Shown here: piece by piece, positions 22,449 to 45,422 of the stretch
How the letters are laid out: each line of letters starts with the position of its first letter
How positions within the stretch are numbered: position 1 is the stretch's first letter
DNA from: Chloroflexota bacterium
Lineage (GTDB): Bacteria > Chloroflexota > UBA11872 > VXOZ01
DNA: 64,000 nt
Reading direction: 5' to 3'
NCBI GenBank assembly: GCA_963662335.2
Contig: CAXXVD010000001.1
Span: 384,001-448,000, forward strand
The notes under the pieces: generated by a model
Told to the model about the DNA's origin: nothing
Database searches by the model: none
Seen by the model: only the letters and a program-made list of their open reading frames with translations
Translations under genes and position numbers: made by a program

Positions 22449-25400
22449 ATGATGCGTGCTCGTTGGTTCGGACAGGCATTGAAGCGGCGGGGCGGAGTTT
22501 CCCCCGGCGGCCGGGCGGCGCTGGTAGCGGCGCTGCTCATTGGCGCGCTCTGCGTTGCGCTGGTTCACGCCAACGCGGCGGCAGCGGCCACGGTCACGGC
22601 TCCCCTCTCCCAATCTGAGGCTACGCCGACACCGACGCCACAACCTGCGCCGGACCCCACGCCAGCGCCGCCTCCCGCGCCAACGCCCACACCTACACTT
22701 ACACCCACGCCTTCTCCTACCCCGGAGCCTACGCCTACACCGACGCCGGAACCTACGCCGGAACCTACGCCGACGCCCACTCCCACTCCCACGCCAACAC
22801 CGTCCGGGACTCAGGGAGGCCCTCCCGCGCTGACCATCGCTTCCTCCCACGCCACGGCGGCCAAGGGCGAGGAGGTCGAGTTCACCATCACAGCCGGCAA
22901 CGCGCCCGCTTCCGATCTCACGGTCAATCTGCAGGTTAAGGCCAAAGGCTCGTCGGTGGATGAGACCGGGTCGCTGCAAGTCGTCCTCCGGCAGGGCGAG
23001 ACGCAGACCTGGCTCACCTTGGTCACGGAGGGCGGCTCCGTAGACCTAGCGGGCGCCACCGTCACCCTCACCCTTCAAGCCGGCACGGGCTACACACTTG
23101 GCAGTCCCGCCGCGGCCAGCGTCAGCGTGGAAGACCGGCCCCTGCCCACGCCCACCCCCACGCCGGAAGTAAAGGGGGAGACGCCTGGCGGAGCGGCCCC
23201 GGCGCCCTCGGGCCTCTCGGCGTCGGGGACCAGCCGCTCCAGCATCCGCGTCAGTTGGAGCAGCGAAATATTCGTCGTCGCTTACAAGGTAGATCGCTAT
23301 TACGACGAAATCCCGCCTGTGCCCTTCTGGCTGAACCTTATCAGCGGCACCTCGAGCACGAGTTATACGGATGGCGGACGCAGGTGCGGCACAAGCTATA
23401 GCTACCGCGTCGCCGGCAAGGGAGACGGCAGTTTCTACGACACGTACTACGGCTCCTATTCGTACACGTCGGGCAGCACCTACTCGTGCCCGGTGCCAAC
23501 GCCGACGCCTACGCCCACTCCCACACCAACACCTACGCCCACTCCCACACCAACTCCGACACCCACGCCTACGCCAACGAAGACGCCCACACCTACGCCA
23601 ACGAAGACGCCCACACCTACGCCAACGAAGACACCTACACCTACGCCAACGAAGACGCCCACACCTACACCAACGAAGACGCCCACACCTACGCCAAGAC
23701 CAATTCCCACACCCGTACCCAAGGCCCCCGCCCCTGCCAACGTAGTCGCGACTCCCACCGGTCTCACCAGTATCACGTTCGCTTGGAGTGCGCGGACGGG
23801 CGTTTCGCACTACATGTTGGAGCGCTACTTCACCGGTGTCAGGAGCGAGAAAGAGAAGGAGGGTTCCGGCCAGAGCGAAGAAGGTTGGTCGAGCGTAGCC
23901 ACTGAGATAGCGGGCACAAGCTACGCTTATACCAGCAACACCTTGCTCTGCGCTAGCAGCGAGAAGTTCCGCGTCAGCGGCCGCGGAAACGGCGCCACGT
24001 ATAGCACAGCGTACGGCGCCACCACCGAGGTTAGCGGCACTATTCCGTGCGCAAAAGCAGCCCCCAAGCCCACCGGCTTCACCCTTACCGCCACCGGTGA
24101 GCAGAGCATCACCGCCAGTTGGGACTCCCATACCGATCTGCACGGTTTCAAGCTCGAACGGCTCTTCCTTGGCACCGAACCCGGCGGCTCCGGGCAAACC
24201 GAACAGAGCGTCTGGAGTGAAGTAAAAGGGGCTGAAGACCTATCTGCCACCAGTTTCGAAGTCACCGACCAGGTCGCGTGCGGCAGTTCCTATTCGTTCC
24301 GGCTCAGCGCCCGGGGGGACGGCTGGCCGTATCTCACCGCGTTCAGCACGCCGACCGCGGAGCAGAGCGGCAGCACCTCGCCCTGTACCAGAACCGCGCC
24401 TGCGCCCACCGGCCTCAGCGCCAGCGCCGCCGGTAAGACCGGCATCACCGCCAGTTGGAGCACGCAGGATGACGTCGCCGCCTACAAGCTGGAGCACGCC
24501 CTCGCCGGCACACCCACGCCCGCCTGGACCGCCATCGAGAACATCGCCCCGACCCCGGGCGCGAACGCCACCACCGGCTATACCGTGAGCACCCTCGAGT
24601 GCGGCACGGAATACAGCCTCCGCGTCAGCGGCAAGGGCGACGGCTCGCCCTACACCACTACCTACGGCACTCCATCGGCGGCAGTCACCGGACGCCCTGC
24701 GCCCTGCGACGTGCCCGCGCCGACCGGCCTTAGCGCCAGCGCCTCCGGCCAGACCGGCATTGCCGTCACCTGGTCTGGCGTCACCGCCGGCGTCACTTAC
24801 ACGCTGGAGCGTTCCGACGATGGCGGAAAAACCTGGCCGAAGGGATCGCCACACGTCATCAGCGGTATCATCGGTACCAGCCAGACCGTTAGCGGCCTGA
24901 GCGAGTGCACCGAGTACGACTTCCGGGTGGGAGGCGTAGGCGACGGCTTGCGCTATTCCGCCACCCCCGGCCCCACGGCGCAGACGACGGGACGCACCGC
25001 GCCTTGCGCCGTGCCCGCGCCCACCGGCCTCAGCGCCACCGTCGTGAGCGAGACCGCAATCACCGTCAGTTGGACCGCCATCGGTACCGGCGTGAAGTAC
25101 ACGCTGCAATACGACAAGGGTAAGGAAACCCAAACCCACTCAGACATCACCGGGACCAGCTACGCGGTAACCGGTCTAACGTGCGGCACCGCATACACCT
25201 TCAAAGTCAACGGCGTGGGGAGCGGCTGGCCTTACGTCGCCACCCCCGGCCCCACGGGCCAAGCGCAGGCCACCACCACCGGCTGCGACGTGCCCACGCC
25301 CAGCCTCTCATTCCCCCAGGTTACGCGGACGAGCATTACCGGGCAGTGGAGCACTTACACCGACATCACCTACCGGTTGGAGTACATAGTCAAAGCTGCC

Positions 25401-27437
25401 GACAGCGGCGCGGGTGGCGCTGCCCCCAACTGGTCCCCGATCGGGAATAGAATCCCAGGGACAGGCAGCGCGGTTTCCAGCGTTGCGGAGAACCTGAAGT
25501 GCGGCACCGCCCATCAGCTTCGAGTCGAGGCAATTGGCGACGGAACGCACTACAAGAACGAAACCGTCACTACTGACCCGCTCACCCAGAGCACCAGCCT
25601 CTGTCTGGCGTCGGCCCCTACTAACGTCCAGGCCATACCCACCGCCCAGACCAGCATCACCGTCAGTTGGGACACCCAATCCGGCGTCTCCACCTACAAG
25701 CTGGAGCGCTCCGACGACAGTGGCGCCAACTGGCCGAACGCCAATGCGGTGCAAGTTGCCCCCACCCCGACGGGCGCCAGTCACACCTATACGAACCTAA
25801 CTTGCGGCACGGACTACCGCTTCCGCGTCAGCGCCATCGGCGACGGCATCAACCTCGATAATTCCACTTACGGCAGCACGTCGTCAGTGATAACAGCCAG
25901 CACCGACAACTACTGCACGCCGCAGGACCTCACCATAATCCCAATGCCGCAACGAAAGGCGGAGTTGCGTTGGGGCGCCGTGAATGGCGCGACGTACACA
26001 GTGCAGATACGCAAGCCGAGCGGGAATTGGCCAACGCCTATACCCGGCGGTACCGTTCCTAACGAGCATGACAGAGGAACGAGCACCTCCCATGAGATCA
26101 AGCTGGATGAAGTTTTCAACGCTGGCACAGTAGCGGCGCCGGCCCTTGAAGGCCTCGCTCATGCCACGGCCTACCACCTTCGCGTCCAAGCCACCGTCCC
26201 CGGCCATGGCACCTTTAGCAGCATGCCAATTGTCATTATTGACACCCCGATCTTGCGGGCCAATGGCAACAGCCCCGGCTTGGGCGCAAATGACGCTCAG
26301 GTAGCCCTTAAGTGGACGCCCATCCAAGACATCCTTGGCGCAAGCTACACCGGTGGCGCGTATACCTTCAACTATCGCCAGCTTGAAAACGACCACACCC
26401 AGATCGGCTGGCAGCCAGACACCTTTGGCCCAACAAGCACTACCAGCGCCACAATCAACGGCACAACTCATACGATCACCGGGCTAGCGCGGGAAAAGAT
26501 CCAAGCCATACAGTTAGTCTATGCCGTCACTCCGACCCCCGGTGGCGCAAACCGGGTATTCGCCGCCAGAGATGCCTACGTCTGGCCCTCCGATCGCGCC
26601 GGAGGCGGCGGTGAACGAGTTGCGACGTTTCCTTTGAATTATCCGCTAAGTTTGCTCTCCAACAAAACGTATGTGTACCGCATCTGCGCAGGCACGTTCT
26701 CCTCAGATGCAAACAAGCAAGCAGCTTGGCGGACTTTCGTCATCCATGCTCTCAACCAGTGGCACCTGGCCACTGACGGTCTGGTCACAATGACACATTC
26801 ACCTGGCGGTTGTGCCGACTTCTCCGATCACATTACGCTCGTTTACGATGGAGTTAAAGACCGCCTTATGAAAGAGTTAGAGCCTGACGAGGATGCCAAA
26901 CTGCGGGCTCAAGTGAGAGCGCACGTTGGGAAAATCGGCAGTTGGTTGGATATCGCCTCTCAGGATCGCGCGTTGAATGAAATCAGCGTGATCGACCTCG
27001 GCGCGGATGAATACGACGCATTGAAAGCTGTGAAGATTTCAGCGGAACTCGCAAGGGATCTTGGATTCGCCACATGCATATTCGACGCTCCCGCCTGCGC
27101 ACCCCGAAACAAGGTGCCGCTAACGCTACTTACTACCGACATCTTGCTCAAGCGGGAAGGTGGCTCAGCGTACCAAGAAGATCCTCCACCTTTGCCGACG
27201 GTAGAGTTCAATACATGCGTCGCAGGGGAAAACAAGGCATATGAACACTTGGTGCATGAAGCGGGCCATGCCTTGGGAATCCGAGAGGGCAATGATGGCG
27301 CTGACCAACTGGTCCATCACCCTACAATTCCGGACTCAGTGATGAGTTACGAAAGGCTGCTCCCGGTGGAAGACCCGGACTGTTCCCCTCACCCCCTAGA
27401 CATCATGGCTATATTTGCGCTGTATCAGACTCGCTAG
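22449..27437 (+). CDS. type A1: secreted PT-rich, Calx-beta-like and about 10 Fn3-repeat protein with C-terminal metzincin (matrixin-like) Zn protease
   Basis: Signal peptide ending ANAAAA; PT linkers; repeated P.GL......SITVSW...Y.LER...L.CGT.Y.FRV; HEAGHALG at 27255, SVMSY Met-turn, [11 protein letters not shown]. Confidence 0.85.
23574..23693 (+). repeat. five 24-bp tandem units (PTKTPTPT) inside a longer PT linker
   Basis: ccaacgaagacgcccacacctacg x5, preceded by a (PT)n run; a second PT linker lies at about 22620-22803. Confidence 0.9.
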
Positions 27438-27453
27438 TAAGGAGACTCAGAAC

Positions 27454-45052: not shown

Positions 45053-45098
45053 CGGCTGGACGGTGAAATACAACCCACTGCATCAAGGCAGGCTTCAA

Positions 45099-45422
45099 AT
45101 GCTGCGTTCGGAAGTATTGCTAAAGGGCGTTTGTTTGCTTGGGCTGCTACTGCTGGGGTTCTTTGCTGGCTGCGGCAAGCGATCCTCTGACGACCTCGTT
45201 GATCGGGAAGGGATGCTGATCAGCACAATTCCCGTTGCGCTGGGCAACATCACCACGCTGCGGGAACTCTACCTGCTGGGCAACACGATCACGGGGGACG
45301 TGCCCGCCAGCCTCGCCGGCGTCGACGTCCGCACGGGCGCGTCGTCGGTCTGCACGTCGGTCTCCCCAACACCCACGCCGTTCCCCACGCCGACGCCGAC
45401 ACCCACGCCCGCCTCCGGCTGA
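45099..45422 (+). pseudogene. type C3: internally deleted type C gene
   Basis: C2-like signal peptide (FAGC) joined in frame at about 45213 to the last LRR and PT tail of C1/C2. Confidence 0.8.

Follow-up and report, generated by a model that had tools for sequence, protein, structure and literature searches.

A three-gene locus of Dehalococcoidia with stalked metzincin-like proteins and beta-propeller lipoproteins, a candidate variant of polymorphic effector-immunity systems

Between positions 22449 and 45470 of a 64,000-nucleotide stretch of a Chloroflexota bacterium genome (contig CAXXVD010000001.1; the whole stretch is hereafter called the window), the + strand carries the gene order A1-B1-C1-A2-B2-scar-B3-scar-B4-C2-A3-B5-C3. 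A is a stalked Fn3 protein that ends in a metzincin-like tip, B a beta-propeller protein with a lipoprotein-type signal, and C a leucine-rich repeat (LRR) protein with a signal of the same type. Together they make up a three-gene system specific to Chloroflexota (class Dehalococcoidia). The locus is a variable island in which the adjacency of A and B is conserved, A genes have left scars behind and copies are mosaic. In the literature searched, which covered titles and abstract openings and left subscription journals mostly outside, we found no description of this A-B-C set, in keeping with a sequence-only reading of the window, which named no described system with these parts; the system lies in a phylum, and is built from parts, not described there. 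What that reading observed stands with two corrections, on how A2 and A3 arose and on the A3 frameshift, and its interpretation stands in part. We give an even chance to the reading that A is a secreted stalked protease and B its cognate membrane-anchored inhibitor or immunity protein, which would make the pair a variant of polymorphic effector-immunity systems.

The A-B-C unit and the fold of its tips

Open reading frames, sequence and repeat families all reproduced the gene order and coordinates of the sequence-only reading (Table 1). The conserved 66-nt 3' end of A (family D10) occurs five times, at 27370, 32973, 35209, 37048 and 43193, and directly after each copy stands a distinct B lipoprotein gene, as had been noted. 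The gaps between the A stop and the next B ATG measure 13-40 nt, with a GGAG-type site before each B ATG. A promoter and terminator scan of 26500-46400 gave counts no higher than shuffled expectation. Composition and divergence divide the unit in the way that had been described by eye: against a genome GC of 0.645, stalks and C genes lie at 0.62-0.72 and tips and B genes at 0.49-0.60. C1 and C2 have stayed close (Table 1), whereas at the protein level B2-B5 are 32-43% identical in pairs and B1 shares 27-29% with each. A2 and A3 share 92-97% of their DNA in the stalks versus 15-55% in the tips.

Table 1. Coordinates of the A-B-C locus in the window and of further B genes on the same contig (contig coordinates carry the prefix C1:)
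Feature	Coordinates	Strand	Description
A1, full length	22449..27437	+	1662 aa; Sec-type signal peptide, Pro/Thr linkers, Fn3 stalk (Pfam fn3 E 1e-43), C-terminal metzincin-like tip
A1 tip	26568..27437	+	~300 aa predicted zinc protease domain, MMP-like core, large inserts, six conserved Cys
B1	27454..28878	+	PD40 beta-propeller (E 3.7e-23); lipoprotein-type signal (LASC); no LRR
C1	28924..31140	+	lipoprotein-type signal, N-terminal domain Cn, ~10 plant-type LRRs; likely start ATG at 28951-28972
C 3' end / A 5' junction repeat	30933..31188, 41080-41335, 45215-45470	+	family D3, 88-92% identity; duplication junction marker
A2, headless	31184..33067	+	last Fn3, two Fn3-like domains, intact metzincin-like tip; no signal peptide; identical to database protein P0001 (627 aa)
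B2	33087..35141	+	PD40 propeller and LRR; lipoprotein-type signal
A scar 1	35142..35279	+	about the last 20 A codons and stop; D10 copy 92% identical to A2 end
B3	35296..36981	+	PD40 propeller and LRR, intact
A scar 2	37032..37124	+	about the last 20 A codons and stop; D10 copy, 79% identity
B4	37138..39033	+	PD40 propeller and LRR, intact
C2	39005..41287	+	C1 paralogue, 77% aa identity
A3, headless	41331..43263	+	frame change near 42836 in window sequence; mosaic stalk
B5	43304..45052	+	PD40 propeller and LRR
C3 remnant	45063..45422	+	own signal and lipobox; internal deletion reaching last LRR and tail; 93-94% identical to C1/C2 ends
Island right edge	45423..45470	+	C/A junction homology stops here
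Second B array, outside the window (locus L031)	C1:612857-621724		six intact B1-like genes (35-46% identical to B1), three A-end scars
Lone B1-like gene, 17 kb past the window end	C1:464408-465625		

The neighbourhood of the three genes is kept in other genomes. Relatives of the A2 tip were found in 13 of 41 related genomes (this one counted) and in nine of 16 other species of the genus. In 20 loci from relatives every full tip is followed by a same-strand propeller (B) gene, and arrays of B genes with scars or A fragments occur there in which the unit is repeated four to eight times. Scanning species genomes by pattern yielded 74 loci in 45 assemblies, all of them titled Chloroflexota, Dehalococcoidia or Tepidiformaceae metagenome-assembled genomes (MAGs). 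Counting A 3' ends only where at least 1500 nt lay downstream (n=110) and seeking B within 700 nt, we found a B gene after 104 of the 110 ends, that is after 51 of 53 full tips and 53 of 57 fragments. In 55 of the 74 loci Cn, the N-terminal domain of C, follows on the same strand; in two it lies upstream. The analysis gathered 127 units of tip and B in total.

Fold matches and the zinc motif assign the A tip to the metzincin fold, in agreement with the sequence-only reading. A1, A2 and A3 all carry HExxHxxG; in the A1 tip it reads HEAGHALG and is accompanied by a downstream His and by SVMSY. Two 40-sequence tip alignments show no variation in the two His and the Gly of the zinc motif, in the downstream His or in five Cys. 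The catalytic Glu does not vary in one of these alignments and keeps at least 90% conservation in the other; a sixth Cys, too, reaches at least 90%. The A2 tip, a paralogue of the A1 tip, was modelled with AlphaFold2 at a pLDDT of 78 and a pTM of 0.83. The best VIA-align matches of this model were the matrix metalloproteinases (MMPs) MMP-2, -9, -20 and -12 (Z 9.4-8.9, 141-153 residues aligned, 20-24% identity), followed by EcxA, snapalysin, serralysin, astacin, ADAMs and leishmanolysin, and metzincins made up most rows down to Z 5. Foldseek likewise ranked MMPs and karilysin first (probability 0.89-0.97, but with E 3.5e-3 or worse), and a tip profile search matched MMP-20 and MMP-14 at E 4.5e-4 to 7.6e-4. 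Curated families did not recognise the tip: for Pfam Peptidase_M10 (PF00413, cut-off 24) A2 scored 15.3 bits, A3 11.4 bits and A1 had no match, an NCBIfam scan of the tip returned no match, and among the homologue records examined none bore a name beyond 'hypothetical protein'. The model thus points to a metzincin-fold zinc protease outside the curated families, and proteolysis would be its expected activity.

Metzincins carry their third zinc ligand, a His or Asp, three residues after the motif Gly, and a Met-turn lies below the active site. In the A tips an invariant His about 45 residues downstream of the zinc motif, within an HPxxxDSVMNY block, is the likely third ligand, judging from the alignments. 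The Met-turn region, with the consensus DSVMNY, reads SVMSY in A1, AAMNY in A2 and SVLNY in A3.

The tip belongs to a large family, with 485 clusters at E <=1e-30 among 1.84 billion representatives. It is C-terminal in 202 of 220 homologues, on stalks that vary between Fn3, cadherin, He_PIG and Calx-beta. A hydrophobic N-terminus was seen in 39 of 68 long forms versus four of 86 short forms (<=700 aa), a class that may include truncated contigs or wrong gene starts. The Pro/Thr(/Lys) linkers of A1 itself hold long 12-nt-periodic repeats (22608-22850 and 23472-23745), which are likely hot spots of slippage and assembly error.

Duplication, mosaic copies and scars

The headless genes A2 and A3 arose by tandem duplication of a unit that opens with the last Fn3 of A and closes some 45 nt beyond C, because the C/A junction (D3) is present three times, the third copy continuing into the native right flank, and because the breakpoint shows a microhomology, AACG(T/C)C, between this flank and the A1 stalk. 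Just past the junction, A2 and A3 each have a GGAG site and an ATG that the parental sequences lack; selection for expression or chance could account for both. The earlier description of A2 and A3 as headless orphan cassettes holds for their form, but their origin is plain tandem segmental duplication. We considered C as the lost head of these genes and rejected it: long C proteins in four relatives read Cn-LRR-Fn3 over 1081-2109 aa and have no A tip at the end, and two in-frame stops lie between C1 and A2.

A3 had been described as frameshifted. Public contigs from three runs, all belonging to one study, do not have the frame break; in them a small insertion at this point brings both parts into one frame, so the frameshift is probably an assembly error or a strain variant. 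The window and the public contigs also differ slightly in length at 37034, in scar 2, and at 40381-40384, in C2, where the differences cancel out; they represent either strain variation or noise in the assembly.

Divergence after the duplication is mosaic. The A3 stalk resembles A2 over its first 300 nt (92-97%) and A1 over the 300 nt that follow (89-93%). A protein of another genome, P0088, is 92% identical to the A3 head over 120 aa and about 40% identical thereafter, and ends in an A1-type tip; the same genome carries P0121, a 97% copy of C1. A simpler arrangement is found on a contig from a second study (record 28), where an A2-like stalk is linked through 1.8 kb of unalignable sequence to the 3' end of a B4-like gene and the start of a C2-like one. 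The joints listed in public contigs were set aside as repeat artefacts, their sides being only 20-30 letters long inside LRR or PD40 repeats.

These observations bear on a neutral account, in which an ordinary surface-protein operon was duplicated in tandem and decayed, with no cognate relation between A and B and with the cassettes as by-products of repeats. The sequence-only reading had named simple duplication as the scenario that would overturn its proposal, and it does describe the origin of A2 and A3: the unit is repeated three times from a junction at microhomology, and a spacing of 10147 nt recurs across several repeat families of the locus. Scars and the deleted C3 fit it as well. We nevertheless regard it as improbable for the locus as a whole, as it does not extend to the later mosaic divergence. 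Inside a single duplicated unit, DNA identity is 88-97% for stalk and C but 15-55% for the tips, and the B proteins share only 27-43%; the A-B-C order is found in 45 assemblies; head/tip chimeras occur in a close relative; and orphan B genes stay intact.

Orphan arrays of scars and B genes, as first described for the window, recur in several genomes, and this genome has a second one (Table 1), with no A gene nearby. For 20 of 53 scars one and the same full unit supplied both the closest tip and the closest B, as against a mean of 1.33 and a maximum of 7 in 2000 shuffles, a co-segregation figure that is inflated by kinship of the loci.

The genes that flank the island, at 21363-22196 and 45629-46915, are syntenic across the genus, and the interval between them varies. 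In three genomes (G005, G007 and G015) it spans 3.5-3.9 kb, in which domains of A, B or C were not detected; in a fourth (G011) it spans 8.4 kb with B-scar-B-B-C, and here 23.4 kb. A tRNA scan found none, and hence no tRNA integration site. To the left of the island, between a pyridine-nucleotide oxidoreductase gene and a TIM-barrel gene, two tandem units of about 135 nt (21028-21302; 75-77% identical) each open with a GC-rich palindromic stretch. Further left, 15525-19179 holds two long open reading frames (399 aa on the - strand and 636 aa on the + strand) with third-position GC of 0.66-0.67 versus 0.8-0.9 in their neighbours and no Pfam match, which may be another accessory region. On the right side, 46800-48500 (GC 0.50-0.58) contains a gene with a type I restriction HSDR_N domain that is syntenic in relatives and only 53-56% identical there, compared to 75-85% for its neighbours.

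Candidate roles of A, B and C

B1-B5, about 447-680 aa long, are PD40 beta-propellers (E 1e-21 to 1e-39) with DPPIV_N- and TolB-type propeller matches. Their signals end in a lipobox-like Cys, and the LRR block of B2-B5 is short and C-terminal. Features related to export are found in all three proteins: the signal peptide of A1, the conserved Cys of the tip, and the lipobox-like signals of B and C. The genome encodes the signal peptidase II LspA (PF01252; C5:394565-394966).

We propose that A would be exported via Sec and would carry its MMP-like zinc protease distally, on a long stalk of Fn3 and Pro/Thr, the target perhaps being rival cells or host matrix. B, as a membrane-anchored PD40 propeller lipoprotein, would bind and block the cognate tip and so shield the producer's own surface; orphan B genes and arrays would be stored protection against the tips of neighbours, and C, a conserved lipoprotein, would close the unit. 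The locus may diversify by segmental duplication, by gene conversion between stalks, by exchange of tip and B cassettes, and by loss of A that leaves a scar and an intact B. The survival of B genes where A has been lost and the co-segregation of scar and B types look immunity-like, and two precedents favour reading B as an inhibitor or immunity protein, in the passages cited of each source: potempin lipoproteins inhibit the adjacent KLIKK peptidases of Tannerella forsythia (PMC9890683), and the immunity protein Tsi1, a partial DPP-IV-like propeller, blocks the peptidase effector Tse1 (PMC3391265). A complex prediction for the A1 tip and mature B1, with alignments for both chains, scored 0.00 against a mark of 0.32 and was run without controls, so that it is no evidence either way.

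B could instead be a working partner of A that tethers the tip at the surface or gates its substrates, in a family that grew by duplication and divergence so as to bind or break down a range of host or environmental proteins. Propellers act in this way in DPP-IV- or tricorn-type peptidases, and B matches DPPIV_N and TolB-type propellers; the short gaps with ribosome-binding sites between A and B suggest co-translation, and modules of the LRR, Fn3 and cadherin kinds typically serve in binding. A relative at 90-95% likeness also comes from a run labelled sponge metagenome. We nonetheless think a partnership of this kind unlikely, if worth keeping in view, in light of the B genes that have outlasted A. 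B is intact after 42 of 55 scars, where A has decayed to 20 codons, and after 46 of 54 full tips; pure B arrays exist without any A; and this genome holds 12 B genes versus three A genes.

The third protein complicates the assignment. Cn (~330 aa, no Pfam family; 29146-30258 in C1) is followed by about 10 plant-type LRRs in both C1 and C2. It has 339 homologues at 50-70% identity, and in other genomes is fused to LRR, cadherin, Fn3 or PD40. The nine best VIA-align matches of a Cn model (pLDDT 72) are all NTR-type modules (Z 7.7-5.1, below 8 and so in the range that the tool calls common), among them agrin NtA (7.7), N-TIMP-3 from a TACE complex (5.7) and TIMP-1 from an MMP-3 complex (5.1). A tenth NTR-type chain takes the range down to Z 5.0. 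Foldseek returned only proteasome and Piezo rows for Cn, with probabilities of at most 0.11; Cn has no sequence match to NTR proteins, and a protein atlas search with it gave no usable match. The TIMP/NTR-like match of Cn is a weak but pointed lead.

On the strength of that lead C, not B, might be the inhibitor, with Cn as an OB/NTR (TIMP-like) module of broad action against the metzincin and B as specificity factor, receptor or decoy. It would suit this idea that all nine best chains are NTR-type and that two of them, N-TIMP-3 and TIMP-1, are complexed with metzincins, that C follows A-B in most loci, and that three potempins are OB-fold lipoprotein inhibitors in the cited part of PMC9890683. 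We find it doubtful all the same: besides the empty Foldseek search, the low Z values, the missing sequence match and the moderate model, C is far more conserved (50-70%) than the tips that it would have to track. Somewhat more readily, and still tentatively, we can imagine a conflict system specific to Dehalococcoidia in which the stalked MMP-like protease hits the surface of neighbours, the beta-propeller lipoprotein is the antidote, C contributes a TIMP/NTR-like module, and the cassettes are shuffled in dense host-associated communities. If so, the three genes would form a bacterial trio of protease and inhibitors reminiscent of the pairing of MMP and TIMP in animals.

Several points weigh against the reading of A and B as protease effector and cognate inhibitor. 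As regards the tip, the canonical third-ligand position (HExxHxxGxxH) is occupied by E in A1 and by G in A2 and A3, and A3 has a Leu in place of the expected Met of the Met-turn. As regards export, Lgt (PF01790) was not found at E 0.001 in this 96%-complete genome, and lipidation of B and C therefore remains putative. Adjacency and co-segregation, for their part, are expected for any co-inherited neighbours. In a tip/B congruence check the distances correlated better for tip and B (Spearman 0.36) than for stalk and B (0.17; the third value of the tip-stalk-B set was 0.27), but the correlations are modest and cannot tell cassette exchange from co-inheritance. The low GC of the tips is by itself no sign of recent transfer, because it holds family-wide (48 of 48 loci), and the headless copies in the window arose by plain tandem duplication. 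The idea of swappable tips is supported by the head/tip chimeras among copies and close relatives, but no read or public short-read contig was found to join the A1 stalk to an A2 or A3 tip; as such contigs break at repeats, the absence proves nothing. Finally, the conserved gene C had no place in the model of the sequence-only reading, and if the weak TIMP-like match were real, C rather than B could be the inhibitor.

Should B prove to be a cognate inhibitor, the locus would add a protease-based, Sec-exported class to the polymorphic effector-immunity systems and with it a first propeller-type immunity family, and would offer a route into competition or host-matrix remodelling in uncultured Chloroflexota. 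The weak TIMP-like match of Cn beside an MMP-like protease is a further, testable lead on the origin of metzincin inhibitors.

Comparison with known systems

The A tip resembles matrixins and other metzincins (MMPs, serralysin, snapalysin, leishmanolysin) in its HExxHxxG motif and in fold, with matches from Z 9.4 to 5.8. It is about twice the size of a matrixin and carries inserts, its best Peptidase_M10 score of 15.3 bits falls short of the cut-off of 24, and its third His lies about 45 residues downstream instead of at +11.

With Tse1/Tsi1 the locus shares a propeller-type partner of a peptidase, B matching DPPIV_N. As portrayed in the cited part of PMC3391265, Tsi1 is a small fragmentary propeller directed against an injected cell-wall amidase, whereas no type VI apparatus is implicated here. 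The KLIKK/potempin pairs come nearer in layout. Within the portion of PMC9890683 cited, the peptidases are secreted, one of them is MMP-like, and each is linked to a specific membrane-anchored lipoprotein inhibitor that shields the producer surface. Karilysin also came up in the fold search with the A tip. The potempins of that account are beta-barrels of 98-132 residues encoded upstream of the peptidase, whereas B is a large propeller encoded downstream, and phylum and secretion route differ. Arrays, scars and cassette exchange do not figure for potempins in the same passages.

Set against the polymorphic toxin systems CDI, Rhs and MafB, as covered by the cited sections of Zhang et al. 2012 (PMC3482391), the A tip would be an extracellular, disulfide-rich, MMP-like protease where theirs is a small intracellular toxin. 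Pfam and fold searches of A returned only Fn3, a purple-acid-phosphatase N-terminal (Fn3-like) match and the protease, without an Rhs, TpsA or LXG domain, and Sec is the sole export signal seen. The partner B is a large beta-propeller lipoprotein, a fold that, according to those sections, had not turned up among immunity proteins; there is a conserved third gene, C; and killing and immunity are putative here. The likeness to these systems lies in architecture. As in the toxins described there, the C-terminal domain varies on an N-terminal part that is conserved, and a partner gene follows directly downstream, with headless cassettes and orphan partner arrays in the present locus, and the variable part is AT-richer, with a sharp drop in identity between strains.

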